In this document: positions 11,861 to 62,974 of the stretch, piece by piece
Layout: the number at the start of each line of letters is the position of its first letter
Numbering within the stretch: the first letter of the stretch is position 1
Virus record (IMG/VR): IMGVR_UViG_3300045988_100686
Location: 32,001 to 96,000 of that record
Length of the DNA stretch: 64,000 nt
Direction: 5' to 3' (one strand)
Origin: a virus
Position numbers and translations under genes: made by a program
Notes under the pieces: model-generated
Database searches by the model: none
Seen by the model: only the letters and a program-made list of their open reading frames with translations
What the model was told of the DNA's origin: nothing

Positions 11861-11862
11861 AT

Positions 11863-11940: not shown

Positions 11941-11941
11941 T

Positions 11942-12018
11942 CGGGATGTAGCGCAGTTTGGTAGCGCACGTGATTTGGGATCACGGTGTCGCAGGTTCAA
12001 ATCCTGTCATCCCGACCA
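11942..12018 (+). tRNA. tRNA-Pro (anticodon TGG)
   Basis: Acceptor CGGGATG/CATCCCG, anticodon arm CGTGA-TTTGGGA-TCACG, T-loop GTTCAAATC, discriminator A and CCA. Confidence 0.85.
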
Positions 12019-12022
12019 CTAT

Positions 12023-12098
12023 GCTCCTGTGGCGCAATTGGCAGCGCAAGTGTTTTGTAAACATTAGGTTGTAGGTTCAAGTCCTATCAGGAGCTCCA
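12023..12098 (+). tRNA. tRNA-Thr (anticodon TGT)
   Basis: Acceptor GCTCCTG/CAGGAGC, anticodon arm AGTGT-TTTGTAA-ACATT, T-loop GTTCAAGTC, and CCA. Confidence 0.85.
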
Positions 12099-12101
12099 TA
12101 C

Positions 12102-12191
12102 GGAAAGGTGGTCGAGTGGTTTAAGACAGCAGTCTTGAAAACTGCCGAAGACACAAATCTTCCGTGGGTTCAAATCCCACCCTTTCCGCCA
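12102..12191 (+). tRNA. tRNA-Ser (anticodon TGA), long variable arm
   Basis: Acceptor GGAAAGG/CCTTTCC, anticodon arm GCAGT-CTTGAAA-ACTGC, a long variable arm, T-arm GTGGG-TTCAAAT-CCCAC, and CCA. Confidence 0.85.
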
Positions 12192-13564: not shown

Positions 13565-13580
13565 TTAGTAAATTACATAA

Positions 13581-13616
13581 GGGGTTGAGGAGAGTGTTCT
13601 TCAACCCCGTATTTTT
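13581..13616 (+). terminator. Rho-independent terminator
   Basis: GGGGTTGA-11 nt loop-TCAACCCC followed by GTATTTTT. Confidence 0.6.
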
Positions 13617-13632
13617 GAAAGGAGTTTTTTAG

Positions 13633-14133
13633 ATGTCTAATCTTGAACCTAAATCCACTGAAGTTAAACAGGAAGAAACAAGCGTAGAACAACAAGAAAC
13701 AGCAAAGGAATACCCAGTAATTCACTGTCAACGAGTTGTTCCCGGGAAAACAGCAGAGTCTATGGAAGATATTGAAGGTCTTGTAATTCAGCTTTCAGAA
13801 AATGGTGCGCTTTCACCTGAGTTGGTTCCCAAGTTCATCATGAATATGGATGTTGCAAAGCTTCCTAATGGAAGAACAACAATTGTGTCAGCTAGATGCC
13901 GCAACAATTTTATCATCACTGAAACTATCTCATCCCCAAGTCCAGATACTTATGATGAACAGGCAGCTGTTGAGATTTGCCGTAATAAAATTTATAGTAG
14001 ACTATGGGAAATGTTGCAATTCTTATATGCGACTGCAATAGTAACAACCAATACTATCGTATCTGAGTATAACGCTGCGCAACAGATTCCTGAGTCTGTA
14101 ACAAATGAAAGGACTGAAGAAAATGATGACTGA
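13633..14133 (+). CDS. hypothetical protein
   Basis: SD AAAGGAG upstream; 166 aa. Confidence 0.55.
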   Translation: MSNLEPKSTEVKQEETSVEQQETAKEYPVIHCQRVVPGKTAESMEDIEGLVIQLSENGALSPELVPKFIMNMDVAKLPNGRTTIVSARCRNNFIITETISSPSPDTYDEQAAVEICRNKIYSRLWEMLQFLYATAIVTTNTIVSEYNAAQQIPESVTNERTEENDD

Positions 14134-16037: not shown

Positions 16038-16072
16038 TAGAATTGCAGACTAAAAAGAAAGGTTGTGAGCAT

Positions 16073-19000: not shown

Positions 19001-19096
19001 GAGCATTACGATGAAGCACCTACAAATTCTATCCAACTTGATTCCGCTGTCATTCGGGATCAGCAGGAAGGCACTGAGAAAAACGACCTCTGGTAA
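16073..19096 (+). CDS. DNA primase-helicase (Zn-finger + TOPRIM + D5-like P-loop NTPase)
   Basis: CHC2-like Zn finger (CPFHNDKHQRS...WHCF), TOPRIM acidic motif (VMPDNDDAGMDYA), and a Walker-A-like segment (VVGLTGSFKTSYTG). The likely start is the ATG at 16073; the ORF track begins at a TTG at 16043. Confidence 0.75.
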   Translation: MLVEAFETAFPNHDFGWRQSGSSALGFCPFHNDKHQRSLSVYLNDMGEERWHCFAESIGGGLIEIIKRSGLPETSSTEGANYWLVQHGFIQETEQQVAASKRNRALREFLEWTNKLLMESEDAAGLRSYIASRHIDVRTIPMAPIGFYPTVSEVESWLSEHNYYELLEPELIPERRHEPLVTGSLLMFYRHSYEEFGRIKIRNVFKEKDGNKVTMFLGRKTSKKESAGYFSWNMHGSPSEDAILVEGEFDVGALTSMVYTYDDTAVEPIYCFSGGGNLNYGIGILTNMGKKNLYVMPDNDDAGMDYAYKLADAFPQTFIIVPHDYKEKDDPASWAADHTFDDLQAAYNARTPAFSWIGTRLADSAKDATIEEQSTIKTKLIKYAKKLRPIDRELFLKSYGAISGVSLPALIEEVEDSSEVRYRKVLNEMGYGIQMRVETKNSINWEQISNIIMETERDILLDAGDDDVERKIVLRVSLASRSERLELSPEEYADDKKLYSSVVTLLGSRVWVKPRCMSYMRESCNLLSRNHLQDIPEEMIYTHTGWRGDRYISPTGFINAEGFHKLNDIKVELPDNPAYMRNYYLDDPPADLEFVKNLIREEILKVFPYQVTLPYLAHIFWSPLAHFVPMAKPVCLWVVGLTGSFKTSYTGLMASFFGNFKTGDFETWRSTTNAIEKNGYFVKDMPYVVDDYKGVDINPKALTSCIQNYGDRHGRGRMRADLNIGKTWYIRGNMISTAEDIPQGEASVLSRILLLKIPGRGNSEHLTRAQANANLLPGLMSKYIQFLCQRKLREHDYELLLAERRSKYKAFHGRVSESLAANSIAWDAVAEFLGLEDLQSEYDFAIEEILHTMNMSTRDEQAGFVFISTLTELLQSGQCYLEGYNGMDDTEHPENAKRIGWITPSEVYLLGSLALAEVNKFRISVNGVGLKYSTSAIYDQLIHAGQVKPAKNGGPTNIVKINKQSVRVLKFRRGVLEHYDEAPTNSIQLDSAVIRDQQEGTEKNDLW

Positions 19097-21803: not shown

Positions 21804-21822
21804 AAGAAAGGAATGAGGAACA

Positions 21823-22551
21823 ATGGCTAACGAAATTCAAATATTTAGCAATGAAACATTTGGACAGTTAAGAACTATCAAGATAAACGGAGAGATATGG
21901 TTTGTAGCAAAAGATGTCTGTGATGCGTTAGAGATTAAAAATTCCAGGGATGCCTTAACAAGACTTGATGCTGATGAAAAGAATACCGTAGTTTTAACCG
22001 ACGGTATTGGAAATCCTAACAAATCCGTAGTAAATGAGTATGGACTATATACATTAGTGCTTTCAAGCCGTAAGCCTGAGGCAAAAACATTTAAACGTTG
22101 GGTTACTCATGATGTGTTGCCATCTATACGTAAAACTGGGCAATACAGTAATTTGCCTCAGGATTATTTAAGTGCACTGAAAGCACTTGTTGCTAGTGAA
22201 GAAGCTAAACAGAAAGCAGAGTTGGAACTCGCCATTGCACAGCCTAAAGCCAACTACACGGACAATGTTCTTTCCTCTGAAGGCTACATGACTGCGACCC
22301 AGATTGCTAAAGATTATGGAAAGTCTGCAAAGTGGTTAAACAAACTGCTTCATGTGGAAGAAATTCAGTATAAGAGTGGCAACCAATGGATTCTTTATGC
22401 TAAGTATGCTGACAAGGGATATACTGTGTCTGGTACTTGTGTTGTATGTGATAATTCCTACGTATCTACCTATTGGACTCAGGAGGGACGCAAGTTTATA
22501 TATGATCTTATTAAAGATAAATATGGTTTGACTCCGAGAAACGAGGAGTAA
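21823..22551 (+). CDS. Bro-N / KilA-C antirepressor-like protein (second paralog)
   Basis: Bro-N N-terminus IFSNETFGQLRTIKINGEIWFVAKDVCDAL, paralogous to the protein at 9792-10568. The C-terminal part resembles KilA-C/ORF6C. Confidence 0.75.
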   Translation: MANEIQIFSNETFGQLRTIKINGEIWFVAKDVCDALEIKNSRDALTRLDADEKNTVVLTDGIGNPNKSVVNEYGLYTLVLSSRKPEAKTFKRWVTHDVLPSIRKTGQYSNLPQDYLSALKALVASEEAKQKAELELAIAQPKANYTDNVLSSEGYMTATQIAKDYGKSAKWLNKLLHVEEIQYKSGNQWILYAKYADKGYTVSGTCVVCDNSYVSTYWTQEGRKFIYDLIKDKYGLTPRNEE

Positions 22552-31279: not shown

Positions 31280-32779
31280 TTAGTCAGAGTAGTCCTTATA
31301 AAGTCCATAGATATTCTTAGCACCGAGTGCTGCGCCACCAACAATGCCTATTGCACCTATTTCTGGCATTGTACTATGGAGTAATTCTCTACCAGCAAGC
31401 ATTCCTGAGATGCCGCCAGCCACTCCTGCTACATGTTTGGCTTTATTTGTTGAGAGTGTGTCTACAACCTTTTGGAATACTGAACGATCTCGTTTGGGCT
31501 TTGGTACTGGATTGAGTTCCTCAGCTAATGCGGCAGTCTTTTCTTTTCCTGTGTTTAGAAGATTATTACCTCTTCTCCAGTTAATTATTCTAGGAGAATT
31601 AGGATTTTCTGGGAGGTATCCATTCGCTTTTAAGATGTTCTGCATGATAGTATTCATTGCGTTAGTTTTAGCCAATGTTTTTGGAAAGCTATTATGAAAA
31701 TATCTTAATAGTTTACTTGCTACTTTTTTCCCTCTATACTTTGGATGAACTACTAATTCCTCTAGCAAAGAATAACCTTCAGGGCGACCACTTTCTCGTA
31801 GAAATCCAATAATTTTATTTTTATCTGTAGCAACATAGCAATGCTTACCACTCCGAATAATCTGTCGTATCAATGCAGCTTTGGTATTATATGCTAAAAA
31901 TTTTACATCTTCAGCACTTAATGAATTAAATAATTCCAGGATTGCATTTAAGTCTGTGGCGTCTGCTTTGCGAATATTAACATCAGTACGTGCTTGTGTT
32001 TTTAATGGGTTGAGTTCCTCCGCCAATGCGGCAGTCTTTTGATTCTCCCAATAACCAGGTTTATACTTTCGTATATATGGCTTTATGGATTTCCTAAACT
32101 TTTGAAGTTCTTTTCTGTACTTTTTATCTGCAAGGGTATCACCATTCATAGCTTTAATTCGCAGTGTATTTAAGTTACTAAATACTTTGGGAGTTACAGT
32201 TTGATCATAGCGCTTCTGAAAATCAGCTTTATATGCATCCTGTATCGGATCTAGTTGTTTTTGCAAGGCATCATTATTATTAATTGCTGTATGATATTGT
32301 TTATCATAAGCGTCAAACTTCCTAGTATCAGAAGAAGGAAATTTTTTACTTAACACGGCAGCGCCTAGCATTCCCATTCCACCAATAGCTGCCTTAACAC
32401 CAATATCAGATACCTTTTTATTCGGAATATGCGCTGCCAATGCACCTGCAGCGGTTAAACCTAGACCACCAGCAGTAAGTCTAAAAGCCCAATCAGGTTT
32501 GTTGACGTCTATATCCGGAAAATCTGGAGGCTTTTTATACCCAGGCATATCAGATACATATGCTGGTACACCGCTTTCTTCACCTGCATAAGCAAATTCG
32601 TTACGTAGAACACGATTCATGAAATAAGGATCTTCATCTTCATACTGGATATCTTTACCAATTTCTGGATTAAAGTTTAGCTTGTGCTCTTCTAATACTT
32701 TAGGATCCTTACTCCAAGAAGGTTCCAAGACTGGCAAATAAGTTGCAACCTTCATCATGTATAAGTCTTTGTTTACCAT
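31280..32779 (-). CDS. GNAT-family acetyltransferase domain protein with glycine-zipper/TM segments
   Basis: GNAT core LVVHPKYRGKKVASKLL with flanking beta strands. Gly-zipper segments lie at both ends. An internal duplicated peptide TAALAEELNP is encoded by a 34-bp direct repeat. Confidence 0.6.
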   Translation of the reverse strand: MVNKDLYMMKVATYLPVLEPSWSKDPKVLEEHKLNFNPEIGKDIQYEDEDPYFMNRVLRNEFAYAGEESGVPAYVSDMPGYKKPPDFPDIDVNKPDWAFRLTAGGLGLTAAGALAAHIPNKKVSDIGVKAAIGGMGMLGAAVLSKKFPSSDTRKFDAYDKQYHTAINNNDALQKQLDPIQDAYKADFQKRYDQTVTPKVFSNLNTLRIKAMNGDTLADKKYRKELQKFRKSIKPYIRKYKPGYWENQKTAALAEELNPLKTQARTDVNIRKADATDLNAILELFNSLSAEDVKFLAYNTKAALIRQIIRSGKHCYVATDKNKIIGFLRESGRPEGYSLLEELVVHPKYRGKKVASKLLRYFHNSFPKTLAKTNAMNTIMQNILKANGYLPENPNSPRIINWRRGNNLLNTGKEKTAALAEELNPVPKPKRDRSVFQKVVDTLSTNKAKHVAGVAGGISGMLAGRELLHSTMPEIGAIGIVGGAALGAKNIYGLYKDYSD

Positions 32780-42865: not shown

Positions 42866-43804
42866 TTAGTCTTCGTAACCAGCGCCAGTCAGTTTAATCT
42901 TTGCGACACCGTTATCGTTACCAATTGAAATACCAATGTTCTCCCACAGATGGAAGGTAAACTTGTTGGCTTTGGTTTCCATAAATGCTTTAACGTCAGT
43001 CAGGACGTCAAATACACCAAGGTATTCAGGGGTAGAGAACAGATAAATGTGACCCGGTTTTACAATTTCATTCTTGATGGAACGAACGAAGTTGTAACCC
43101 AACAGCTTAGTATAGCTGTAACCATTATGGATGATATCTTCCATAACCTGAGAACCAGCTGCAGGCTGTTGCAGTTTCAGCAGGTCCATCCAGTCAGATT
43201 CACTGATCAAAATAGTGCCGATAGGTACTTGACGTTTAACCAGGAGTTTCAGGCCTTCAGCCAGGATAGACGGAGTAAACGGACCAGCTGCAGTGTAAAC
43301 TGCGGTACCAGCTTTTTCCGCTTCTTTCTTCTTCAGAATATCATCCACAGTAGAAATAAATAGTTTATCTTCTGTAGCCTGAATATCTTTCAGATAGTTC
43401 TCTTGGATAATTTGTTTAATAGGTACTCTGTAGGTCATCAACTCTTCAGTGAGTTTGTGGAATTCCTCAGACTGAATATGAGTATAGAATACCTGGAATT
43501 TATCACCGATATAGTATCTCTGTTGAGCTTGCTCACTGAAAGTTACAGGGTAAGCCTCAGATACTTTATCTTTGTGGATAATACGCATCGGGGAATCTGA
43601 ATCAACAGCTTGGTCCAGATCTGCTGCGGTAATTTGTTTCGGGGGAATAATTTTACGAGTGAAGGAACCTTCACGGATTTTTACACGGCAGAACTCAGTA
43701 GCACTACCTGCAACCTTTTCCAAACCTTCCTGAGAAGAAATCTTTTGGACAAAGGAAGTGTTGTATAACATTGCATCATTTGCGTTGTCGAGAATTACGC
43801 TCAT
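42866..43804 (-). CDS. putative major capsid protein
   Basis: 312 aa with markedly high-expression codon usage, sitting immediately after a decoration-like gene and downstream of a scaffold-like gene. Assigned by gene order and composition only. Confidence 0.45.
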   Translation of the reverse strand: MSVILDNANDAMLYNTSFVQKISSQEGLEKVAGSATEFCRVKIREGSFTRKIIPPKQITAADLDQAVDSDSPMRIIHKDKVSEAYPVTFSEQAQQRYYIGDKFQVFYTHIQSEEFHKLTEELMTYRVPIKQIIQENYLKDIQATEDKLFISTVDDILKKKEAEKAGTAVYTAAGPFTPSILAEGLKLLVKRQVPIGTILISESDWMDLLKLQQPAAGSQVMEDIIHNGYSYTKLLGYNFVRSIKNEIVKPGHIYLFSTPEYLGVFDVLTDVKAFMETKANKFTFHLWENIGISIGNDNGVAKIKLTGAGYED

Positions 43805-45987: not shown

Positions 45988-47910
45988 TTATTTCATGGTT
46001 CTATCAATCAATGCATTATCTATTGCATTTCCTGCTAGACTTGATACTAGTGATTGACCTCTTCCTCTGAATATTATACCGTTAAGTAATGTTGTGCCAA
46101 CATTTGCAACGGTGTCTCCAAATGCTGCCAATTTTTCATGAAATTCTACGTTTCCTGCTGTTTTTAACATGCTCTGCTCTACATTAGAATGTTTCTGTAA
46201 TGCAATATTTACTGCTACAGGAGCAACTAGAGATATAATATCATCTGTTTCTGCTGCACATTTCTCTAGATTATTATAGTTATCTGTGGATATAAAATGA
46301 CTCATCACAAATGGTATCACAGGTTCGTTTATACTCGATGTTTTCTGCATCTGTAGTTCCTGCGGGGTTGGTGTTGCTTTCTTAGAGTGGAGTAAAGCTG
46401 CTGCTGCCGTTAAAATTGCCCAAACCTTAGGATCAGTTAGTAGCTTCTTGACCGTCGGTACATTATTGTACGCTGCGTAAAGTGCCCCAAGAGTATATCC
46501 AGTTACTGCAGGGTTTAGTGGCGGCTTTTTGTTTCGCAAGTACATCTCATACTGCTGAGGTGTCATTTGTACTGGCACAGTAGCATAGGGATCTTGTTGA
46601 ACTAAAATTGTTCCCGGCACTTGATCTCCTGCGATATTGGTACAGCTCTCCGGAATGCGAACTTGTCCGAAAGTTAGAGCAGGATTCATAGCCCATGCAG
46701 TACTCGGAATATCAATGTTTAATGCAGCTAACTTCTCTACACTGTCCATTACTGCAGGAAGGAAAGATGAACGCTTAATTAGGAATGGTTCAACTAATCT
46801 GCTTACCTGCTTTATGGTTTCTCCTCCAGGATTTGATACTGGTTTCGCTGCCAATAATCCTGACAATACTTCTCCAAATGAATCCAAGGGCAGGCCACGT
46901 TGAACGATAATTATTCTTGTAGCTTCACGAGGTTTCAACTGGATGGCATTTGCGAATAAACTCTTTAAAATGTCTGGGAAAGAATATCTTAATGCAAGAT
47001 GATCAAGCAGCGGAATAGGCAAATCTGGTTGCATTTCTTTTATCACCGGGTTGACCCCTGCTATTCCTGCGTTCATTACTCTTACTGCACCAGAGTTTAT
47101 TCGTTTAATCATTGCCAACTTATTAAAACTTGGTGTTGACGCTGTTTTTAGGAGTTCGTCGTCTTCAATATCAAAAGTACGTGCTACCTGAGCAACTGGA
47201 ATACAATTACCTAGATTTTCAAAGTAATCTGCACATTCATCTTGTAGACTGCGTTGATCTGCGCTGGCTACTTTTGATAACACATATGCAATTCTGTCAG
47301 CACGGTGGCGCACGATAGAAATATCAAAGAACGTTGGATTATAATTTATCATAAACGGTTGTTTGCCGTCGGGGTAAATCTTTTTCTTGTCATACTTTAT
47401 ATGAGAACAGTAGTCTGATTTTCTACGTGCTTTATTGCCACAGATGGAGCACACATCATAGGCTACTCTGCAACCCATACTTACTTCAAGCTGTTCCCCA
47501 GCTTCCTGCCTGCGAACAAACTCTGCACCCTTGATTTTATCAATGGCTAGAATAAGTTCTACGCGATGCATTTTTGGATTGTACCATGAGAATACTACTT
47601 TGCCATAATCTTGACTAGTAGGCTTATTGTCATGCTCTTTAAATACTTTTGCTGTTGTAACAAAGGTGTTGTGTCTAGCAATCAGGTCCTTTTCGGGGAA
47701 GTAGTCACCGTTAATATTGCAACCATAGTATTCACCAGCGCCCATAGCTATTACATGCAAATACATGAAACCTGGATCAGGGGTAAAAGTAGACAAGAAT
47801 TCTGTTATTTCAGGACTCTGTCCTCGTAGTTCATCAAAGTTCGCAAGTTTTACTCTTGCTTCACCTGTATTCTCAAAGGTACTTCCTAGAGAATATTGTT
47901 TACCAAGCAT
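45988..47910 (-). CDS. large head-module protein (possible portal or prohead component) with Cys cluster
   Basis: 640 aa containing CRVAYDVCSICGNKARRKSDYCSH. Shares the FFD-S/T-V-R-RADR-AY motif with the protein at 49921-50691. Confidence 0.4.
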   Translation of the reverse strand: MLGKQYSLGSTFENTGEARVKLANFDELRGQSPEITEFLSTFTPDPGFMYLHVIAMGAGEYYGCNINGDYFPEKDLIARHNTFVTTAKVFKEHDNKPTSQDYGKVVFSWYNPKMHRVELILAIDKIKGAEFVRRQEAGEQLEVSMGCRVAYDVCSICGNKARRKSDYCSHIKYDKKKIYPDGKQPFMINYNPTFFDISIVRHRADRIAYVLSKVASADQRSLQDECADYFENLGNCIPVAQVARTFDIEDDELLKTASTPSFNKLAMIKRINSGAVRVMNAGIAGVNPVIKEMQPDLPIPLLDHLALRYSFPDILKSLFANAIQLKPREATRIIIVQRGLPLDSFGEVLSGLLAAKPVSNPGGETIKQVSRLVEPFLIKRSSFLPAVMDSVEKLAALNIDIPSTAWAMNPALTFGQVRIPESCTNIAGDQVPGTILVQQDPYATVPVQMTPQQYEMYLRNKKPPLNPAVTGYTLGALYAAYNNVPTVKKLLTDPKVWAILTAAAALLHSKKATPTPQELQMQKTSSINEPVIPFVMSHFISTDNYNNLEKCAAETDDIISLVAPVAVNIALQKHSNVEQSMLKTAGNVEFHEKLAAFGDTVANVGTTLLNGIIFRGRGQSLVSSLAGNAIDNALIDRTMK

Positions 47911-52777: not shown

Positions 52778-53290
52778 TCATCCTTTTGGCATCTGTTTTA
52801 CTGCGTCAGCAATTGTTTTATATAGAAGAGCTCCAGTTGCTACATTACCTGCAGTAGCTAGCGCTCCAGCGGCACGGGTCTCATTCTTTGTAATCCCAAG
52901 ATCCCTAAAGTTTAATGTACCAGACCCATTCTGGATTCTTTGCTTGATTGTCTTGTAAGTGATTAAGAATGATGGTGCTGAAGCAATAAGTGATGCTACT
53001 TGTAGTAAATGTGGTTTTTGACGTGCACTAATAAGTTGTCCAATGTCAATCGTTGTTCTAATTGCACCTTTGATAGCCAAAGCAGCGACAAGAACAAAGA
53101 TTTTACGAATAACAAGCTCTTTTTTGCTCAGCTGAAATCCATCTGTTATCTCTTCTTTTGACATTACTGTATGATCTGGGATTAAGTAAATAGCTGCTAC
53201 ACAGACTACTAGGGGAATACCCTTGCTTATTAAAAACCGTTTTACTTGTTCTCCAATTATATTTGCGAGCATTTGTTCGTCTCTGCCCAT
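52778..53290 (-). CDS. membrane protein (multi-TM)
   Basis: IPLVVCVAAIYLI and FVLVAALAIKGAI hydrophobic segments. Confidence 0.5.
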   Translation of the reverse strand: MGRDEQMLANIIGEQVKRFLISKGIPLVVCVAAIYLIPDHTVMSKEEITDGFQLSKKELVIRKIFVLVAALAIKGAIRTTIDIGQLISARQKPHLLQVASLIASAPSFLITYKTIKQRIQNGSGTLNFRDLGITKNETRAAGALATAGNVATGALLYKTIADAVKQMPKG

Positions 53291-55992
53291 TAGTACCTCC
53301 CGTCTTTACCTTTTCCGAATCCTGTTCCGCGTGCGTAGGAAGGAATAGGATTATAAGAGTGTAATGGACTACGTGATTGTGTAGCAGCGTTATCAATAAG
53401 CTTCTCTTTTAAGTATTTAAATCCAAAGTTAGCCATCCAATCATGTTTGTAGGTTGGGGCTTTATTGGTACCCTTCTGGAAGGGAACAAACTTTGGTGGA
53501 CGCTTGCTAGGATTCTTGCGAATATCTGCTGCTAGCTGGTTATAGTCTACTACGTCTCCTTCAATGAGATCATCAAAATCTCCCGGATCAATAATCTGTA
53601 CGTAGTTTATTAATCCACGAGCGATTACCTCAAAGTTTTTCTTTACACTATCGAGTCCTGCACCATGGTACAGAGTATCAAGACTCTGAATAAACTGCTT
53701 GCGACCAGTATCTATGCCTTTGTAAGGTACAACCTTGCTAATGTTTAGAATACCGTCTGTTAATGGGTCGCCAGCTTCTACTCTATCCCCAACCTTTACT
53801 TTCAGTGTTCTTGTTGGCGGTATGTAGTACTTCTTACGGCCTATGTATACGTTCTGTCCGCCTGCAGGTGCTGCCTGTATGTTTGTGATTGTTCCAGATA
53901 CTTCAGTAATAACTGCTGCACCACTAAACTTAGTGGACATATTAAAGAACGCCTTTACCGTGTTAAAACCAATTGCCTCACCTGCTGCAGTACCTGCTGT
54001 ATGTTTAGATGACAGGCCTAACTGTGTAAAAGGTTCTGAAATAGCGTGAGCAGATACTACACCTACATTTTCACCGATATCAGGGAATTTCAATTTCTCG
54101 TTGTACCCGTAGCAATATTGGCATACACCATCATGTGCTTCACATGTAGCTGGGCTACGTACCTCAACCTGAGGAACTCCACGACGTTTTAATTGTTCAT
54201 AATAGTTGGCATCGATAAACTTGTTTGTCTTCGCCTCAACACGGTTAATGATATTCTTAGTATCGTTAATGTCACGTACTAAACCACGTTTACATCCGCA
54301 ATCCTTTTTGGTAACTACGATATCAAGTACGTTGCCAATAAGTTCTTTTGCTAATGCGCCTGCAGGAGCTACGGATAGCTTTGCACCAACAGTACCTTTA
54401 CGGGTGCCATAGGATGATACAAAGTAATCGGCAGGACTTAGACCCTCGTTGTATGATGTGTGAATCAAGGAAGGAATAAGTTTATCTTTAGGATCTGCTA
54501 CTACTGTAGGACTAGTTATGATCTGCATTACTTGTCCTTTTGACCCCTTGGAGCCTGTATATGCCCACTGCTGGAATGTGTTGTCAGTTGCCTCATCTGT
54601 GAGTTTCTGTGCAAATGCCTGAGCTTTACGTAATATCTTGCCTTTTTCTGCATCGACTTGTTTGGGTGTAAGATCTTTGCGTTTGTCAATATCTGCCAGC
54701 TCTTGGTCAATCTTATTGAAGTATATGTTACGCTTTTTCTTCAACTCATCCATATCGAAGTCAGTTGCTTTGTAAGATACACCTAATCTATAGGCAAATA
54801 ATGCTCCCAACTCTTTTAGACCATCAGCAATCCTGGTATATTCTTTTGGCCATCTCTGTCCTACCTGGGTAAGAAGGCCGCTCATTACGGATTTATTCCA
54901 CACTTTGTCATAATTACGCAATGGCATTGGGAATAGCTCATTGATAAGTACTGCACCTGCAGTTGTCTTAAACTGTCTGTATTGAACAGGGGCGTCTGGC
55001 TTAATCATTCCCATGCGGATATTTTCGTGAAGCTGTTTAACGTTTTGTACAGGAGTGAATCGTGTACTTTTATCAAACGTTGGGAGAGTCTTTGTTGCTG
55101 CAAATAATCCAAACACTGATTCCTGCTGTGGTAACATCATAGGTCCCATGTTGCGGGGTGAGAATAAGTTGTGACTTGGAGTCATTTTCTCCAGTGCTTC
55201 TAACCTTGCTTCTTCCGTTGCAGGTACATGAAGCTGCATGGTATCATAAACTAGAATACCGTTGGCTATGAAAAGTGGAAACTCCGGGACCGTGAAGTCG
55301 TAAGTTATTTCTTCTCGGTCAACTTCTTCTACAGAAGTCACCTCATCCCATACATATGGCAGGTTTAAATATGGATTTGCTGGGTTTACCTTAGCTACAT
55401 CACTGATCTGTACTAGTGCGCCATTCTCTGGTATTCTTACTGCGTTGTAGTCCAAGTATAAACGTGTGTTTACTATTTTGCAAAAGATACCCTGACGTGC
55501 TAGTATTACTTTAGCTAATTCTAGCTCTTGCTTATCCTTTACCTTCCAGTACATACTAGGATTTTCTGTGTTATCTGTGGTATCAAAGTGGACCATTGCT
55601 AACAATGCCGTGCCAAGATCATCTGTTGATAAATTTAGCATATAATATGAAAACTTGTTTGGTTTAAAGTTATCCATTGCAAACTTACGCATAGCTTTTG
55701 CTTGTGCAGTTTTCTTTGGAATATATGATATCATACGCATTATAGGCACGAATTTACCAAGTGCATCCTGGGGAGGTAATGGAGCAAAAAATGTTTCACT
55801 TCCGTTTGTTGCCAATGAGTGGTCATCGGTTACTGTGATCTCGTAGCCACAAGAGGTGCAGATTCTGTACATCTTCCCATGCTCTGTGTGTACACTTCGC
55901 TCAGTGTAATCCATGAATTCATTGGTGTTTGTAGCAGGGCAATAGGTTAATACTTTTCCCTTAACTACAGTTGAGTTACTTTGGGTACTCAT
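53290..55992 (-). CDS. RNA polymerase beta-prime-like protein (C-terminal-half homolog) with N-terminal intein-like element
   Basis: Three strong beta-prime motifs. (1) LHVPATEEARLEALEKMTPSHNLFSPRNMGPMMLPQQESVFGLF matches the VHVPLSLEAQLEAR...SPANGEP...PSQD..LG segment after the catalytic loop. (2) The bridge-helix region TGSKGSKGQVMQI...SYNEGLSPADYFVSSYGTRKGTVGAKLSVAPAGALAKELIGNVLD matches SGARG...FREGL..[33 protein letters not shown]. (3) The trigger-loop region AISEPFTQLGLSSKHTAGTA matches GEPGTQLTMRTFHTGG. In the N-terminal 250 aa, C18 plus ITVTDDHSLATNG (block B, TxxH-like) and TYDFTVPEFPLFIANGILVYD|T (blocks F/G) resemble intein splicing motifs. SD GGAGG upstream. Confidence 0.7.
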   Translation of the reverse strand: MSTQSNSTVVKGKVLTYCPATNTNEFMDYTERSVHTEHGKMYRICTSCGYEITVTDDHSLATNGSETFFAPLPPQDALGKFVPIMRMISYIPKKTAQAKAMRKFAMDNFKPNKFSYYMLNLSTDDLGTALLAMVHFDTTDNTENPSMYWKVKDKQELELAKVILARQGIFCKIVNTRLYLDYNAVRIPENGALVQISDVAKVNPANPYLNLPYVWDEVTSVEEVDREEITYDFTVPEFPLFIANGILVYDTMQLHVPATEEARLEALEKMTPSHNLFSPRNMGPMMLPQQESVFGLFAATKTLPTFDKSTRFTPVQNVKQLHENIRMGMIKPDAPVQYRQFKTTAGAVLINELFPMPLRNYDKVWNKSVMSGLLTQVGQRWPKEYTRIADGLKELGALFAYRLGVSYKATDFDMDELKKKRNIYFNKIDQELADIDKRKDLTPKQVDAEKGKILRKAQAFAQKLTDEATDNTFQQWAYTGSKGSKGQVMQIITSPTVVADPKDKLIPSLIHTSYNEGLSPADYFVSSYGTRKGTVGAKLSVAPAGALAKELIGNVLDIVVTKKDCGCKRGLVRDINDTKNIINRVEAKTNKFIDANYYEQLKRRGVPQVEVRSPATCEAHDGVCQYCYGYNEKLKFPDIGENVGVVSAHAISEPFTQLGLSSKHTAGTAAGEAIGFNTVKAFFNMSTKFSGAAVITEVSGTITNIQAAPAGGQNVYIGRKKYYIPPTRTLKVKVGDRVEAGDPLTDGILNISKVVPYKGIDTGRKQFIQSLDTLYHGAGLDSVKKNFEVIARGLINYVQIIDPGDFDDLIEGDVVDYNQLAADIRKNPSKRPPKFVPFQKGTNKAPTYKHDWMANFGFKYLKEKLIDNAATQSRSPLHSYNPIPSYARGTGFGKGKDGRY

Positions 55993-56063
55993 TAAATTTC
56001 TAAACCTCCAATCTAATCTAGGTTTCTAAAGATCATTATACCGGGAAATTATGTAACAAAAAA

Positions 56064-57027: not shown

Positions 57028-57312
57028 ATGGGTGTTCAGTCTGAAATAGATAAAGTTATAGGAGAACTTCCTGAGATTAAACCTCTCAGCTTTTATATTG
57101 AAGAGTTACGGAAGTATTTAGACACAACGACTCCTCTTGAGGAAATGTTTAAAAAGCCTTTCCCAGAAGAACTGATACGTAAATTTCTAGCTGCAAAACA
57201 AGATAATTCACAGAGAAGAAATGAGCTGCTCGTAAAGCAGGTCTGGGAGATTGTAGTTGATCTTCCTGTTGCACCTGTACCAGAATCTAGTAAAAGGAGG
57301 AGAGTAATGTGA
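57028..57312 (+). CDS. hypothetical protein (first gene of the E2-JAB-E1 operon)
   Basis: SD AAAGGAGG upstream; 94 aa; stop overlaps the next start (ATGTGA). Confidence 0.5.
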   Translation: MGVQSEIDKVIGELPEIKPLSFYIEELRKYLDTTTPLEEMFKKPFPEELIRKFLAAKQDNSQRRNELLVKQVWEIVVDLPVAPVPESSKRRRVM

Positions 57313-58793
57313 GTAATGAAAATATGGCTTCAGGCTATATAAATTATATTGCTGATGCTAGTACCTCAGTAATTGGACGTAATAGAGGGAAGTGGGAATT
57401 GTCACAAAAGTATGTTCAGTATTTAGATGATACTACTGAATATGCACTTGGACTAATATTTGGACCTTATCAGCTTAATCATTTTGGTTGCTACGTAGCA
57501 ACTAGAATATTTTCTTCTATTCTTACTCCTGGTAAGAAAAACGGGTTAATGACACCCAATGAAGCTCGTGGAGCTATTGAAGATAATCTTTACTGTGATG
57601 TGAATTTGCCGACATTGTTTTTCAATGCCTTGGTGCTCTTAAAATTCATGCAGTTCGGAGACGATACTTTTGCTTCCCCTACAGCTTTCAAGTATATAAA
57701 ACGAGTCCAGACAAGTGGATCCCGAGGAACTATTGTTAACATGAAAATTATTCCATTTGTATCTGGGCTTGTTACTCCAGAGACAATGCTTAAGGGAGTA
57801 AAGATCCTGTGTGCAATAGCTGCATTAAAACCAGAGGTATATGAAGCAGTTCAAGAAATATACAATGATATTAATAAAGAATTACTCAGAAATATAATGG
57901 TAAATGCATCTGAATTGCTTGACCTTAGGATAGAGAGTGGCAAAATTGCAATACCTATGTTTAAACTTGGTGCTCCTGGTATCCCGCTCGAACTTGTACT
58001 CGATGATTATAAGGAGTTTTCACTTAAGCTCGAAGAACTTGCCTCTAGAATTTTAGAGGCGTGCAATGGTAGCTTAGAAGATTTCCTTCAAGCTATATTT
58101 GCTCTTGACATTGATAATATAACTACCTATAAGGAGGAAAACACAATGATGGTTGTAACTGAAATACTGAGGAATCTGATTAATAAAGGTATACTGATTA
58201 CTCGTGATGGCAGACTGCTGTCCATCAACATTACTGATGAAGATACTGTTCAGGTTAATCCTTTCAATAATAATGATGCGGAACGCCCGACTATTGCAAA
58301 TTTGACCATTGAACGTAACGGTACTACAGAGGAAATCATTACTCTGAAGGATGATAGATTAGAACATATTATTGATACCGCTCAAAACGTTCTGAATTCT
58401 AGTGTAAACAATGCTATCAACAATGACAGAAATGTCAGAGTACAGCGTGCTTCTATGGCATCTGCTACACCTGCTACACCGGAAATGCGTAGAAATGCTG
58501 ACGGGTCTATTTCTGTGCATAGAACAGTTGGCTCTTTCCGTATGTGGGCCCCAGCTACTCCTGCAGAGGCAGCTCAATTTGAGCGTACACAGCAACAACA
58601 AGCTCAACAAGATCAGCTTGCAGCTGGTGAGGATACAGAACGGGATGCCATTGTTGAAACCGTAGAAGATAGTCCTGAAGATATTGTCATGGTTTCTGTT
58701 GTGGAAAACAATAGTGTGCGTGTAAGACGTATGACTCGTGAAGAAGCTGAAGATCAAGAACTTGCTATCGTAAGTGTTATTGAAAGACGGTGA
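57309..58793 (+). CDS. hypothetical 494-aa protein in the Ubl-conjugation operon (possible adaptor/target-recognition component)
   Basis: GTG start with GGAGG 8 nt upstream. The C-terminus is acidic and Gln-rich. Confidence 0.5.
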   Translation: MSNENMASGYINYIADASTSVIGRNRGKWELSQKYVQYLDDTTEYALGLIFGPYQLNHFGCYVATRIFSSILTPGKKNGLMTPNEARGAIEDNLYCDVNLPTLFFNALVLLKFMQFGDDTFASPTAFKYIKRVQTSGSRGTIVNMKIIPFVSGLVTPETMLKGVKILCAIAALKPEVYEAVQEIYNDINKELLRNIMVNASELLDLRIESGKIAIPMFKLGAPGIPLELVLDDYKEFSLKLEELASRILEACNGSLEDFLQAIFALDIDNITTYKEENTMMVVTEILRNLINKGILITRDGRLLSINITDEDTVQVNPFNNNDAERPTIANLTIERNGTTEEIITLKDDRLEHIIDTAQNVLNSSVNNAINNDRNVRVQRASMASATPATPEMRRNADGSISVHRTVGSFRMWAPATPAEAAQFERTQQQQAQQDQLAAGEDTERDAIVETVEDSPEDIVMVSVVENNSVRVRRMTREEAEDQELAIVSVIERR

Positions 58794-58800
58794 TTATACA

Positions 58801-59607
58801 ATGGCTATGAATATTAAAAAGATAGAATTTGAAGACAATTCTGCTGTAGTAACCATGAGGGATCCTGACGAACTTATTGGTCTTGTACGTAAAAGAGTGT
58901 CGATTGATGCTCTAATTCAAGCCCTTGGAAAGATTAGTACATCCCAATCTATGCTTATTCCTCCTAACTGCAGGGGCATTTGGGAGACTAAAAACAATAA
59001 GTATTTCCTGTTTATCATCCCGGCACACATGGGCAAGACTGCCGTAGTGTGGTATAAAACTGACACTGATAACTATGGAGCTCCGGGTAGTAGTACTAAG
59101 TTGGAGAACCAGCCTGAACATATTCAGTCAATGTATGAAGACTCAGAAGACAGTGACTACATTAGAGTGTTCAACACTCCATTCCCAGATGCGTGTGTGT
59201 TGATTAAAATGACAAAGGCTGGTAGCAATAAACTTATGTTTAATGATATCAGAGCATGGTCTATTAAGAGTACTATGCTTCCTCTAGATAAAACAGCAGT
59301 ATACCGCTGGCCGTTCTTTAATATGTATGGTGATGCAAGAGTATGCATTGGTGATATCCCCAGAGAGTATCCTAATGTAGAATCTGTTGCTAGTATTATT
59401 AATTACCTATATATTGGCGTAGGTAACCATGATCTTGATCATACTCCATATGTAATTCCTGATAATAAGTTTGGAATCAAAAATTCTTTTCAGTTGGTCA
59501 AATACCTTGATGAAAACAAGTTGACTGTATTTCCAAGGGAGTTACTGTGTAGTTTTGGTACATCGATCATTGAAACAGTAGAAAATATTGTTGCTAATGG
59601 AAATTAA
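58801..59607 (+). CDS. E2-like (UBC-fold) ubiquitin-conjugating enzyme homolog
   Basis: FFNMYGDARVCIGDI...VESVASIINYLY aligns with the UBC core FHPNVYADGSICLDIL...VSSILTSIQSLL; the catalytic Cys sits in RVCIG. The ORF track starts at a GTG at 58774. Confidence 0.5.
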   Translation: MAMNIKKIEFEDNSAVVTMRDPDELIGLVRKRVSIDALIQALGKISTSQSMLIPPNCRGIWETKNNKYFLFIIPAHMGKTAVVWYKTDTDNYGAPGSSTKLENQPEHIQSMYEDSEDSDYIRVFNTPFPDACVLIKMTKAGSNKLMFNDIRAWSIKSTMLPLDKTAVYRWPFFNMYGDARVCIGDIPREYPNVESVASIINYLYIGVGNHDLDHTPYVIPDNKFGIKNSFQLVKYLDENKLTVFPRELLCSFGTSIIETVENIVANGN

Positions 59608-59621
59608 TGGAGGTAAAAATA

Positions 59622-61472
59622 ATGGCAGTTCCAAACCAATATAATAAATATGCTTCTTTATATACTGTGCCCAAAAAGCCAGAACTCACAGACGTCCAAA
59701 AACGTCTTATTGAACGTATGCAACGTAGTCGCTGCAAAATCTGGGAGTCCTATGCTGCGTATACTGCAGCTGATGAATCTGATAAGAAACCAGACAATTA
59801 CTTCCCAACTAAAACTGGTTGGGGTATTGCGCGCAAGCGTGTTCTCAATGGTAATAGTGTGGAGTTCGTTACAACTGTTCCAGAATGTCCGCTGGTTGAT
59901 GAAATCCAACCCAAAGTTGTTCTTGATATTCATAATAAAATCCCTGGATCTCTGCTCCAGGAGATTCTTGCAAACTTTAACAAAGTATGCGAGGACTCTA
60001 ATAATGAGTGTGCTGCTCAGATTTACCGTGAGCGAGATGGTGAAAGAAAGTATTTCATTTATTACCCTGAACAAAAGGTGTCTACTGCTCAAGTAACCTA
60101 TACTCATGATCCACAGCTCATGGAACTCGCAAAGGCATATGACCTCATCATGGAGCTGCATTCCCATGATTCTATGGGTGCATTCTGGTCTGGCACAGAT
60201 GACAGTAATGAGAACACTTGTGGATTCTACATGGTAATTGGCAGATTTAACTCTTCTGTAGTTGAGTACAAATGCCGTGCAAAACTTGATAAACTGTATG
60301 CTGATTTTAATTGCTCTGAAATCTTTGATTTCGGTGACACACCTGAAGAACAAATCCTTACTCGTGAAAACTTTATTGCTCCGAATGATGAACTGGATAA
60401 GAAGATCACAAAAGAAAGCCTTACTTATTATAATGGTGCGTATCAAGCTTGTTATGACATGTGGAACTATGGTGGTTATTCTTATCAAGGATACAATGAC
60501 TATAATTATGGTAAATCAACTAAGAAATCTCAGAGATACCTTGCTAAAACAGAACTGGCTGCACGTAAACGCTTGATGGCTAAATTGAAGAATGCTCCGG
60601 AATCCATCTTCCCGGAAGACGCTCTTTATAATGAGCTCTGGGATCATGCAGACTATATCAAAGCCAGAAAACGTTGGGAATGCTGTGGGTACTATGATAA
60701 CCAGGAGGCCATGAAGGAATGCTGGAAACGAATCCCAAAAAACCAGGCAGGCGCGGAAGAGGAGGTGAGTCAAGACGCCGTCGTTGCCTCTGATTATGTA
60801 ACTCGTATGAGCAAGTGCTACTCTGCAGATGGGTTCCAAAATACCCATACAGCTGGTGGAGTTGCCACTGGCATTGAAACTGCGGAATATCTTGCTGGTA
60901 ATGGAGATGAGGCAGCTGCACGTTATGGCACGCTTCCGGGCAAGATTCAACAATACAGTAATTTTGATTTAGATCTTGGCACTGCTGATGTGAATGACCA
61001 AGACTACAATGATAATCTTAATATGGCTGTGGCTAGCAGAACTGAGTCCCAGTCTAACATTGAGACATTCTTGCAGGAAGGAATGGGCGGGGTCCGTGAA
61101 GAGACTGAAAACAAATTTATTGCTAATGTAATGAATATTGCGTTTCTTCACACCCCGTCAGCCAGTATCAACGTCGGAGTGTTCTGGGAGTTGCTTACAC
61201 CGGTTGAGAAAACTAGACTGGCAAAAGCATTCCACTGCTCTGTTATGGATCTTGCTACTCTGCTTATTGGCAGCAGCGCTGTTGTTGCATCTCCTGATGT
61301 AGCAGAGTTCCTGTATAAGTGCATCCTTGGTGATGCTAAGTATGTAGAATGTAAGCTTGGTCTTATTACCAGTAAGGTCATGGCTGAAAAGCCGTCTACT
61401 GCTGCTCAATTTGTAGCACTCATCCATGAGATGCTTGAGGTTGAAAGAGATGTTAAGGAGGCAAAGGAATGA
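59622..61472 (+). CDS. JAB/MPN (JAMM) metallopeptidase-domain protein (deubiquitinase-like)
   Basis: JAMM motif ELHSHDSMGAFWSGTDD (HxHx7Sx2D) with an upstream Glu. The ATG at 59622 has TGGAGGT 8 nt upstream. The stop overlaps the E1 start (ATGA). Confidence 0.7.
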   Translation: MAVPNQYNKYASLYTVPKKPELTDVQKRLIERMQRSRCKIWESYAAYTAADESDKKPDNYFPTKTGWGIARKRVLNGNSVEFVTTVPECPLVDEIQPKVVLDIHNKIPGSLLQEILANFNKVCEDSNNECAAQIYRERDGERKYFIYYPEQKVSTAQVTYTHDPQLMELAKAYDLIMELHSHDSMGAFWSGTDDSNENTCGFYMVIGRFNSSVVEYKCRAKLDKLYADFNCSEIFDFGDTPEEQILTRENFIAPNDELDKKITKESLTYYNGAYQACYDMWNYGGYSYQGYNDYNYGKSTKKSQRYLAKTELAARKRLMAKLKNAPESIFPEDALYNELWDHADYIKARKRWECCGYYDNQEAMKECWKRIPKNQAGAEEEVSQDAVVASDYVTRMSKCYSADGFQNTHTAGGVATGIETAEYLAGNGDEAAARYGTLPGKIQQYSNFDLDLGTADVNDQDYNDNLNMAVASRTESQSNIETFLQEGMGGVREETENKFIANVMNIAFLHTPSASINVGVFWELLTPVEKTRLAKAFHCSVMDLATLLIGSSAVVASPDVAEFLYKCILGDAKYVECKLGLITSKVMAEKPSTAAQFVALIHEMLEVERDVKEAKE

Positions 61473-62974
61473 AGAAAACTGTGTTAGCTATCGGGCCTGC
61501 TAGTCCGTATGTGAATCTCTTGGCAACTGTTCAAGAGCATTTAAATGACTTAAGTGTCATTAAACCTAATTTTAATAACCTTCATATCATTCAGCTCGGT
61601 GCTGGTGGTACTGGCGGTTATGTAGCGTATGAAATACTTCGTATGCTTGGTAATATTCCAGAGGTGTTAAAACCGTATATCCATTATACACTGATAGATG
61701 GTGATACGTATGAGCCAAAGAATATTGGCAGACAACTTTGCTGTGAAGATGATATCGGTAAGTATAAAGCTCAGGTCCTCGTTGAAGAGTATGGAGAACT
61801 CTTTGGTGTTACTCCAGACCAAGCGTCTCATATCGATGAGTATTTTACTGCTATCAGCCAGCTGGCTGTTCTTCCAAAATTCCCTCTGCCAATCTGGTCT
61901 GTATTTGTAGACGATGAAGTAGAAAAGTTCTTCAAAGACTCTGAAGCTGCAGTTGCACTTAATTCTAAACAGCCACATATCAATGCAACAGCTACGTCAT
62001 TTATCATTATTGACTGTGTTGACAAAAATGCTCCGCGTAAACTATTACATGATTACTTTACAGATATCTCCAGTTTGCCCAGTACTTTGGCGCGTCTGAA
62101 CTATTGTTGCAATGCTGTTCCTGACTGTGATAAGATCACTGCTACTGGGCAGCAAATCATTGCACATAACAACGGTGGTAACAGCCTGCTTGGAAGTATG
62201 TACGGTGTCACCCCGATTCGTGATATCTACATCATCTCATCCGGCAATGGCAAGTATACTGGCCAAGTATCCTGGGGAAGAAAAAGCTTCCTTGGTAACT
62301 CCAGTGGTTCTATGCACTACAAGGATATCTTTGGTGACAAGGATGTATCTTCTATTATTGGACCTAAGATTAATACGAATGATGAAGTAGAGGCTGTCGA
62401 TATTACTCCGGGTATGACAGACGCTGATGTAAACCAGTTGCGGCTTAAAGCATTGGCTGAGGAGTATTTTACACCGTCTAATGTAAAGAGATTCCAGGAT
62501 AATGTATTCCAAGAAATTGTGGATCCTGCTACTGGCAGATTGTCAAATGGTTACATTAAGTCTATCCCGATTCCAATTACTAACCCAGAGGAACCTGAGC
62601 TTGAAACTGGACACCCGATGCTCAAAAACATGAATATGTTCATGTCTGCTTTTATGTCTACACCTACTCCGTATGACAGGTTCCCGGAGCTTACAGACCT
62701 TGAGATTGATGCAAGAGAAGAGGCGATGAGCTGCGCGGAGCGTGCAGAACATAATGTACAGTCTATCAATGCTAATAAAACTGCTGCAGCTCTTGTAGTA
62801 AATTACTTCACATCTATCTTTAATGGTATGTATATGTTTGAAAAGGAAGTACCCGTTCTTACTACTGAGACTACACGTTTCAACATATTAACGGGCGAGT
62901 ACTCTTCTGACCCGATTACTACGGATTCTCTGCGTATCCCTGTGGAAACACGCAAAAGAGTTCGCGCATTTTAA
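61469..62974 (+). CDS. E1-like ThiF/MoeB-family adenylyltransferase
   Basis: Nucleotide-binding loop HIIQLGAGGTGGYVAYEI and YTLIDGDTYEPKNIGRQL, which matches the ThiF/MoeB D-D-V-SNL-RQ pattern. SD GGAGGCAAAGGA upstream. Confidence 0.75.
   Translation: MKKTVLAIGPASPYVNLLATVQEHLNDLSVIKPNFNNLHIIQLGAGGTGGYVAYEILRMLGNIPEVLKPYIHYTLIDGDTYEPKNIGRQLCCEDDIGKYKAQVLVEEYGELFGVTPDQASHIDEYFTAISQLAVLPKFPLPIWSVFVDDEVEKFFKDSEAAVALNSKQPHINATATSFIIIDCVDKNAPRKLLHDYFTDISSLPSTLARLNYCCNAVPDCDKITATGQQIIAHNNGGNSLLGSMYGVTPIRDIYIISSGNGKYTGQVSWGRKSFLGNSSGSMHYKDIFGDKDVSSIIGPKINTNDEVEAVDITPGMTDADVNQLRLKALAEEYFTPSNVKRFQDNVFQEIVDPATGRLSNGYIKSIPIPITNPEEPELETGHPMLKNMNMFMSAFMSTPTPYDRFPELTDLEIDAREEAMSCAERAEHNVQSINANKTAAALVVNYFTSIFNGMYMFEKEVPVLTTETTRFNILTGEYSSDPITTDSLRIPVETRKRVRAF

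Follow-up and report, generated by a model that had tools for sequence, protein, structure and literature searches.

A predicted split intein at the catalytic loop of a bacterial-type RNA polymerase encoded by a human-gut phage

INTRODUCTION

Natural atypically split inteins have N-fragments of 15–37 amino acids (aa) and are divided at one of two points, S1 (VidaL and PolB16) or S2 (AceL-TerL and GOS-TerL) (PMC13014065). Here we describe an open reading frame (ORF) of a human-gut phage which, in our judgement very probably, is the C-terminal precursor of a naturally, atypically split class-1 intein located in the RNA polymerase (RNAP) of the phage, and trans-splicing would rebuild that enzyme. 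The ORF lies at 53290..55992 on the minus strand of a stretch of 64,000 nucleotides (positions 32,001 to 96,000 of IMG/VR virus record IMGVR_UViG_3300045988_100686), which was analysed as a whole and is called the window below. The N-intein fragments of its family, 24–32 aa in length and 26 aa in the lineage of the window, fit the S2 type.

The AceL-TerL and GOS-TerL inteins (Thiel et al. 2014; Bachmann & Mootz 2015, as cited in PMC13014065) resemble this intein in having a short N-fragment (25 to ~37 aa) split off after the first helix, in coming from phage genes known only from metagenomes, and in a C-fragment that holds most of the Hint fold. They differ in having Cys at one or both junctions, where Ser1 and Thr+1 are found here, in their host protein, which is a terminase and not an RNAP, in a C-fragment of ~100 aa without an insert, compared with 250 aa and a probable endonuclease-like remnant here, and in ending in Asn instead of Asp. 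PolB16 OarG (Pasch et al. 2023, PMC10189870) was, as of 2026, the only known natural atypically split intein without a catalytic cysteine, and it performs poorly (PMC13014065). It shares with the intein described here the absence of a catalytic Cys (Ser1 and Ser/Thr+1), a short N-fragment, an origin in gut metagenomes and a phage-type gene, but it is split after strand beta-2 (15 aa), is hosted by a DNA polymerase and ends in Asn.

The canonical cyanobacterial split DnaE inteins (Ssp and Npu) also produce an essential polymerase subunit by trans-splicing from two distant genes on opposite strands; however, they are split at the endonuclease insertion site (N-fragment ~100–120 aa, C-fragment ~35 aa), depend on Cys and end in Asn. 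Asp-terminated inteins are a known minority, and contiguous (cis) inteins that end in Asp or Gln instead of Asn were reportedly described by Amitai, Dassa and Pietrokovski in 2004; these have the C-terminal Asp in place of Asn for cyclisation in common with the present case but are not split. Among the characterised natural split inteins, none that ends in Asp is known to us. A literature search for inteins at NADFDGD and for split inteins of phage RNA polymerases turned up no such paper; the single apparent match was a split PolB intein.

Phage-encoded beta and beta-prime subunits of the bacterial type that come in pieces, as here, are known from phiKZ-like jumbo phages and from phages like Salmonella phage Arash. 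In contrast to the present case, those pieces assemble non-covalently, their breaks lie outside the catalytic loop (in Arash, 87 aa past DYDGD) and they have no intein fragments. The gene for the C-terminal part of beta-prime (beta-prime-C) precedes the head genes in Arash as it does in the window, and the Arash pieces are abundant in virions: gp206 and gp216 (beta and beta-prime), together with a sigma factor, were among the most abundant virion proteins by mass spectrometry (PMC10585845). In the 'Zeta' crAss-like gut phages, which are rich in introns and inteins, RNAP ORFs have breaks that fall even inside the DxDxD motif; unknown expression mechanisms have been invoked to account for them (Yutin et al., PMC7886860). 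Membership of the window in this group was considered and not established; Pfam has no difficulty in detecting its polymerase (Rpb2_6, E=5e-56), unlike the crAss-type enzymes, and no close relative of it was present in the phage GenBank set.

RESULTS

The 900-aa protein joins an intein fragment to the C-terminal part of beta-prime

An earlier note on this DNA, made without database searches, had proposed that the 900-aa protein is homologous to beta-prime downstream of the active site. All the strings that the note had cited are present in the ORF. The proposal was borne out by a Pfam match to RNA_pol_Rpb1_5 at residues 517–681 (E=8.8e-21), by weaker matches to Rpb1_3 and Rpb1_4, and by a tblastn search with the protein, which matched phage and bacterial rpoC. 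The note was also right that the catalytic Asp triad is missing from the ORF, since no DFDGD-like motif was found in it or in the six frames of the window. The same note had read the segment FIANGILVYDT as a replaced Asp loop in which at most one of the Mg-binding aspartates is kept. This part did not hold: the segment comprises intein blocks F and G and is not a homologue of NADFDGDQ, D250 is the last residue of the intein, and T251 corresponds to the beta-prime residue directly after the third catalytic Asp.

Residues 1–250 of the ORF are an intein fold and not polymerase. The Pfam Intein_splicing profile matched residues 34–248 with its positions 42–153 of 155 (E=1e-7 to 1e-8; 32.1–35.5 bits, just below the gathering cut-off of 35.8), and the first ~41 profile positions, corresponding to the first ~25–40 residues of an intein, are absent. 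An AlphaFold model of residues 1–262, computed from an alignment of 21 family sequences, had a mean predicted local distance difference test score (pLDDT) of 86 and a predicted template modelling score (pTM) of 0.84. When this model was compared with the PDB by Foldseek, inteins were the top 41 among the 50 matches listed, and the sole non-intein among these 50, at rank 42, was a related Hedgehog autoprocessing (Hint) domain. The leading matches were inteins that carry an endonuclease, namely PhoVMA 7qst (E=1e-7, TM-score 0.62), TliVMA, PI-TkoII and PI-PfuI, followed by mini-inteins. The stretch TYDFTVPEFPLFIANGILVYD, which was aligned by phmmer to blocks F and G of the solved CDC21-1 and DnaB inteins, contains these two blocks and is followed directly by T, the first extein residue. 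The features of the gene are as follows.

53290..55992, minus strand: the whole ORF (900 aa and stop), predicted precursor IntC-beta'C; from the ORF translation and Pfam Intein_splicing and Rpb1_3, Rpb1_4 and Rpb1_5 matches
56005..56009, minus strand: Shine-Dalgarno sequence GGAGG, 12 nucleotides (nt) 5' of the ATG at 55992; read from the sequence
55960..55992, minus strand: variable N-terminal tail (residues 1–11), the free end of the C-intein fragment; 12% mean pairwise identity, variable length, pLDDT below 50 at residues 1–6
55738..55959, minus strand: Hint N-lobe (residues 12–85); 62% mean pairwise identity, beta-strands of high pLDDT, aligned to DnaB and CDC21 inteins
55819..55830, minus strand: intein block B, T55-D-D-H58 (TxxH); T55, D57 and H58 without exception in alignments of 19 and of 21 members of the family
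55378..55737, minus strand: alpha/beta insert between the Hint lobes (residues 86–205); 21% mean pairwise identity, endonuclease-carrying inteins as best structural matches
55243..55377, minus strand: Hint C-lobe (residues 206–250) with blocks F and G, TYDFTVPEFPLFIANGILVYD; 68% mean pairwise identity, D232, N244 and D250 invariant
55240..55242, minus strand: Thr251, the +1 residue and first residue of the C-extein; invariant in 48/48 clusters
53290..55239, minus strand: rest of the C-extein (residues 252–900 and stop), from MQLHVP through beta-prime domains 3, 4 and 5; from Pfam and the alignment of the spliced product
53950..54444, minus strand: RNA_pol_Rpb1_5 match (residues 517–681), the best-conserved part of the polymerase half; Pfam E=8.8e-21

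The GGAGG and the ATG give the gene a translation start of its own. It opens a long minus-strand block, in agreement with the earlier note, and this block also encodes a head-maturation-protease-domain protein (45988..47910) and the major head protein (42866..43804); on the 5' side of the gene there is a divergent intergenic region and then plus-strand genes. The architecture of a C-intein fragment followed by the C-terminal ~650 aa of a bacterial-type beta-prime was common to 48 homologous clusters.

The Hint N-lobe begins at the strand that in ordinary inteins comes after helix alpha-1. Upstream of block B it contains an invariant H35 and a near-invariant H38. The His of the 'NX' motif is preceded by Lys or Arg in inteins that start with Ser, such as PolB16 (PMC10189870); H38 is preceded by Lys in many family members and by Glu in the window, and neither His consistently follows Lys or Arg. 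In the C-lobe, D232 (in TYDFTVP) is the block-F Asp, and Y249 and D250 are the last two intein residues. Thr251 is predicted to be the nucleophile of the transesterification step. Non-catalytic cysteines are present (among them C18, C45 and C48), and there is no Cys at position 1 or +1, the junction residues being Ser1 and Thr+1. The insert occupies the position at which large inteins carry a homing endonuclease. It is probably a degenerate, inactive homing-endonuclease-like remnant, since residues 86–205 gave no Pfam endonuclease match and are, next to the short N-terminal tail, the least conserved part of the 900-aa protein.

A distant partner gene ends with the catalytic motif and an N-intein fragment

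The partner of the lineage of the window is cluster P0066, a 1371-aa fusion of beta with the N-terminal part of beta-prime (beta/beta-prime-N) with Pfam matches to Rpb2_6 (E=5e-56), Rpb1_1 and Rpb1_2. At its C-terminal end AADFDGD is followed by a 26-aa N-intein fragment, SVAGDTQVLVQDL[H/Q]GNITLKQIKDVE. In a strain with a 98%-identical C-part the partner ends with AADFDGD, then SVAGDTQVLVQDLHGNITLKQIKDVE and a stop codon, that is, with the catalytic triad and a 26-aa fragment whose first residue is Ser, and more in-frame stops come after this stop codon. Both halves are present on one contig of 149,583 bp, ena:ERZ28569827:BOND22-1 scaffold_37, with the C-part (P0210, which shares its 90% cluster with the window protein and has 98.2% identity to it) at 15,162–17,873 on the plus strand and the N-part (P0175) at 113,812–117,927 on the minus strand. 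Two further pairs, in which N-part and C-part come from contigs of equal length (147,544 bp and 73,336 bp), tie the cluster of the window to P0066. The front half of the polymerase would thus be encoded ~50 kb from the C-part gene of the window, on the opposite strand and outside the window. In the public deposit the partner is labelled 'bifunctional RNA polymerase subunit beta/beta-prime' and the C-part 'hypothetical protein'.

The same arrangement was found with a profile of the region before DFDGD in the family contig IMGVR_UViG_3300045988_113839 (151,701 bp), where the C-part lies at 58,231–60,921 (minus strand) and a 1757-aa partner ORF at 111,990–117,263 (plus strand), the two halves being 51 kb apart on opposite strands. 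This partner ends with ...LIIKGFNADFDGD, then SVAGDTLVCVKDLTGRIKLKQIKDVD and a stop. A protein search with the 1757-aa ORF returned some 30 partner clusters (P0054–P0087) of 1313–1791 aa, and the complete ones all end with DFDGD followed by SV[ASHG]GDTxV...IKDV and a stop 24–32 aa past the motif. Among 34 distinct partner tails Ser1 and Gly4 were present in 34/34, Asp5 in 32/34 and Thr6 in 33/34. The SVxGDTxV of these tails is textbook intein block A, and in a phmmer alignment the partner tail GDSVAGDTQVLVQDLHGNITLKQIKDV was paired with GGALAGDSLVTLVDSGLQVPIKELV, with which the Npu DnaB mini-intein begins. When the N-fragment and the C-fragment were fused, the Pfam Intein_splicing match was not lengthened over the tail. 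The split lies after the ...IKDV helix and matches the S2 site as defined in PMC13014065.

The beta-prime N-terminal half and the beta homologue, which the earlier note had suggested searching for, are therefore encoded as one fusion in related contigs. Its idea of a split RNAP with an N-terminal partner elsewhere was correct as regards the partner but gives only half the answer, because fragments of an intein are present as well. Its further idea, that the active site is completed after protein splicing, agrees with apparently complementary fragments of one intein in the two genes, the splicing itself being a prediction.

In many family partners the beta part contains another intein, which is complete and has a domain of the endonuclease type (L248:1984..7257, an IMG/VR family contig). 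It starts near ...NLKCPSGDMT... and ends with ...GLVIHNT, and these partners thereby reach 1747–1791 aa; the 1371-aa partner of the window's own lineage does not have it.

The two halves are colinear across the junction and the splicing residues are conserved

We fused in silico the partner, ending with DFDGD, to the window protein, beginning with T251, which gave ...PPLVIKGFAADFDGDTMQLHVPATEEARLEALEK... as the sequence around the junction. Against solved bacterial beta-prime chains this spliced product gave E=2e-75, and the alignment across the junction was ungapped (adfdgdtmqlhvpateea versus ADFDGDqMAVHlPlsaEA), which places the intein precisely behind the third catalytic Asp and before the residue that comes next. 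The intact AADFDGD of the partner, colinear with TMQLHVP of the window protein, refutes the pseudo-enzyme reading. A related phage (L019) encodes the whole enzyme in a single intein-free ORF with a contiguous NADFDGDTMAMYVPVTEEA.

The C-part clusters (n = 48, 49–99% identical) have [YF]D and then T at the junction in 48/48 cases, and T55, D57, H58, D232, N244, D250 and T251 are invariant in the aligned C-part family. The Hint lobes had a mean pairwise identity of 62% (N-lobe) and 68% (C-lobe), whereas the polymerase extein had 58%, the insert 21% and the N-terminal tail 12%. Constraint on the splicing domain is thus no weaker than that on the enzyme which it interrupts. Thr was found at +1 in all 59 distinct intein junctions at this site, compared with 61 of 151 intein-free alleles (40%), in which the residue was otherwise Ala (72), Gln (13), Lys (4) or Cys (1); these counts span all phage lineages collected and are not phylogenetically independent, although several deep lineages are included.

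Related phages carry split and unsplit inteins at the same site

Most related phages encode a giant beta/beta-prime-N fusion containing ...[NG]ADFDGD[AT]M.[YH]VP... and ending ~88–90 aa past the motif, and a separate beta-prime-C gene, an arrangement also found in the distant relative Salmonella phage Arash (gp206 and gp216). In such intein-free relatives beta-prime is broken 84–142 aa past DFDGD, mostly 84–92 aa, and never inside the loop, whereas every gene break at the DFDGD site is accompanied by intein fragments. A full intein right after DFDGD inside one ORF was found in L017, L053, L066, L068, L131 and L154, and the Asp-type ending, [YWFQ]D and then T, was found in the continuous-ORF inteins of L017, L131, L154, P0093, P0135 and P0149. 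Since these cis versions interrupt single continuous ORFs, their presence implies that Asp-ended inteins at this site would splice if those polymerases are to work.

At this one insertion site the intein is, across sister lineages, split after 12–13 aa, split after 24 aa, or unsplit. The sister group split after 12–13 intein residues has GADFDGD followed by CQWGHVFLLTKS and a stop (L161:4270..7650 and 13015..13983; also L092, L108, L128, L134, L139, L140 and L144). N-fragments of 12–13 aa would be shorter than the shortest characterised natural one (15 aa). The contigs of this group are of 90–174 kb, are of phage origin and share their IMG/VR sample id with the family contigs. Their C-part lies ~6 kb downstream of the N-part; the stretch that separates the two holds unrelated genes, one of which encodes an OrfB/TnpB-like transposase and lies on the opposite strand. 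A scan of IMG/VR for ADFDGD followed by Cys detected this gut-phage group and jumbo-phage beta-prime-N genes with a natural Cys at this place; it missed the family of the window, whose intein starts with Ser.

The split after 24 residues was seen in L069 (15..2633 and 2642..4783), in which the two ORFs are 9 nt apart and the intein starts with Phe. Other inteins of the 'SN then T' type start with Tyr, Gln or Glu (L068, P0100, P0142 and P0164). The 'SN then T' inteins that lack a nucleophile at position 1 would either use another splicing route or be inactive. The beta-prime-C of L069 (9992..12319) contains a further intein-like insertion (...GLKCLHPDT...LIVSNSKHSGG) at the conserved S-K-H-T/S-G-G motif, which points to several intein insertion points in this polymerase. 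The motif is intact in the beta-prime-C of the window (GLSSKHTAGTAA).

Proposed mechanism of trans-splicing

The polymerase core would be a beta/beta-prime fusion of the bacterial type, the gene of which is broken exactly after the third catalytic Asp of NADFDGD. In the proposed mechanism, gene 1 would provide beta and beta-prime-N up to AADFDGD followed by the 26-aa N-intein fragment, and gene 2, the ORF at 53290..55992, the 250-aa C-intein fragment followed by beta-prime-C from TMQLHVP. The short N-fragment would bring the first strands and the helix of the Hint fold and dock onto the C-fragment. The junction chemistry would be of the oxyester type: an N-to-O acyl shift by Ser1 would be followed by transesterification, in which the N-extein is passed to Thr+1, and cyclisation of Asp250 would release the intein. 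After an O-to-N shift a D-T peptide bond would remain, and the result would be one continuous chain of ~1995 aa (1345 + 650) with an intact active-site loop, ...AADFDGDTMQLHVP... The junction peptide of the predicted ligated product is GFAADFDGDTMQLHVPATEEAR.

Several observations weigh against this mechanism. The C-terminal intein residue is Asp and not Asn, block G does not have the His-Asn end, and both His residues that assist cyclisation are absent, the penultimate residue being Tyr249 and the block-F position Pro or Leu. Some related inteins at the site start with Phe, Tyr, Gln or Glu, so the usual first step is not open to every member of the broader group. The C-fragment retains an insert of ~120 aa, which is not known of any characterised natural split intein. 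The partner assigned to the window comes from a strain with a 98%-identical C-part and from family contigs, and not from the exact contig of the window. Finally, what the analysis showed is the anatomy of the two genes, the fold, the partner, its presence on one contig with the C-part and the conservation, whereas splicing and its chemistry are inferred.

Alternative explanations

Fragments of split inteins associate tightly. A splicing-dead intein could for this reason act as a non-covalent clamp that holds the two halves of the polymerase together, the Hint domain being kept in the mature enzyme. Such a clamp would account for the replacement of the terminal Asn by Asp and for the loss of both assisting His, and other phage polymerases, for example that of Arash with gp206 and gp216, do function as non-covalent fragments. 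Nevertheless, we regard it as unlikely, because residues needed only for the chemistry are invariant (Ser1 in 34/34 tails, T55, H58, D232, D250, and Thr+1 in 59/59 junctions). Moreover, a domain of ~276 aa would have to stay on the Mg-binding loop at the centre of the enzyme, as judged from RNAP structures, and cis copies of the Asp-ended intein lie within uninterrupted ORFs.

Asp cyclisation does not require the branched intermediate. The intein could on this account excise itself without ligation, and beta/beta-prime-N (...DFDGD) and beta-prime-C (Thr251...) would then assemble as separate subunits. C-terminal cleavage is indeed a frequent side reaction of atypical, cysteine-less split inteins (PMC13014065). 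Thr+1 is unnecessary for cleavage, yet it is invariant where the intein is present and found in only 40% of alleles where it is absent, and no intein-free relative is split at this position; cleavage without ligation is in our view quite improbable.

That the protein is a catalytically dead beta-prime mimic which binds or hijacks the host RNA polymerase, a reading offered by the earlier note and prompted by the lack of DFDGD in the 900-aa ORF by itself, is highly improbable, because the stretch read as a mutated loop is intein sequence, a complete beta subunit and the missing half, with its AADFDGD intact, are also encoded in these genomes, and the two halves together form a colinear beta-prime.

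Just as improbable is an assembly artefact, a pseudogene or intron-mediated joining at the RNA level, to which the metagenomic source of the assemblies and the intron richness of related gut phages (PMC7886860) might point, since the architecture recurs in 104 member sequences of the cluster of the window and in 47 further clusters from independent samples, the ORF has its own ribosome-binding site and ATG, and the two halves lie on different strands with 50 kb between them. Joining at the RNA level was rejected also because no Rfam intron match was obtained within 52000–58000 and none of the eight tRNAs of the window is a suppressor. A promoter and terminator scan gave no signal above the shuffled expectation.

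Virion packaging and neighbouring genes

Packaging of the polymerase of the window in the virion, which the earlier note had considered, is plausible, because its gene heads the head-gene block as in Arash and the Arash homologues are abundant in virions; the enzyme would be made late. A 314-aa protein encoded at 6161..7105 (plus strand) has a sigma-70 region 2 (E=1.5e-8) and may confer specificity on the polymerase that the phage encodes.

The minus-strand structural block contains, in addition to the genes named above, a gene for a 499-aa protein with a GNAT acetyltransferase domain (31280..32779). In the 640-aa protein at 45988..47910 (minus strand) the head-maturation-protease match covers only residues ~36–229. 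Across the divergent intergenic region, genes for a Prok-E2_D E2-like protein, a JAB-domain protein and a ThiF/E1-like protein (58774..62974, plus strand) look like a phage-carried set for ubiquitin-like conjugation, and they are preceded by a gene for a 494-aa protein without a match (57309..58793).

Elsewhere on the plus strand of the window there are eight tRNA genes (8830..12191; two for Gly and one each for Met, Leu, Trp, Pro, Thr and Ser), a 1017-aa primase/helicase-like protein with a zinc finger, Toprim and DUF927 (16043..19096), the end of which is overlapped by the DNA polymerase gene, and this family-A DNA polymerase (19011..21803) with an N-terminal uracil-DNA-glycosylase-like domain (UDG, E=1.5e-10).

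Near the N-part gene in the lineage of the window, an IS605 OrfB/TnpB-like gene (Cas12f1-like_TNB, L254:7082..8248) lies two genes upstream, and the same gene is also present in L255–L258, L261, L263 and L265–L267. Downstream in L254 are a large terminase gene (20575..22191) and then a reverse-transcriptase gene (RVT_1, from 22938). The N-part is followed by a Bro-N/ANT gene (L253–L256), to which the C-terminal end (22230..22542) of a 242-aa ORF of the window (21823..22551, plus strand) has 73–75% DNA identity; the two look like diverged paralogues.

DISCUSSION

The combination of Ser1 and Thr+1, a C-terminal Asp, an N-fragment of 24–32 aa and an endonuclease remnant would, if the proposed mechanism is true, be new among natural split inteins, and the related phages would offer a natural series of split points at a single insertion site. 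Natural split inteins with a short N-fragment and without a catalytic Cys are sought after in protein engineering. The family described here consists of dozens of diverged, co-evolved pairs, with relatives whose N-fragments are as short as 12–13 aa.

A polymerase half without the catalytic Asp is, in this phage, read as a trans-splicing precursor and not as a pseudo-enzyme, which corrects a tempting misannotation. Other polymerase genes of gut phages that look 'broken' may have a similar explanation.

If trans-splicing takes place as proposed, an essential enzyme would acquire its active-site loop post-translationally, from the products of two genes 50 kb apart. Splicing would then serve as a checkpoint, the polymerase being inactive until both late proteins are present. 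We tentatively suggest, at somewhat less than an even chance, that a clade of human-gut phages of ~150 kb depends on trans-splicing for the catalytic centre of its own, possibly virion-packaged, polymerase.

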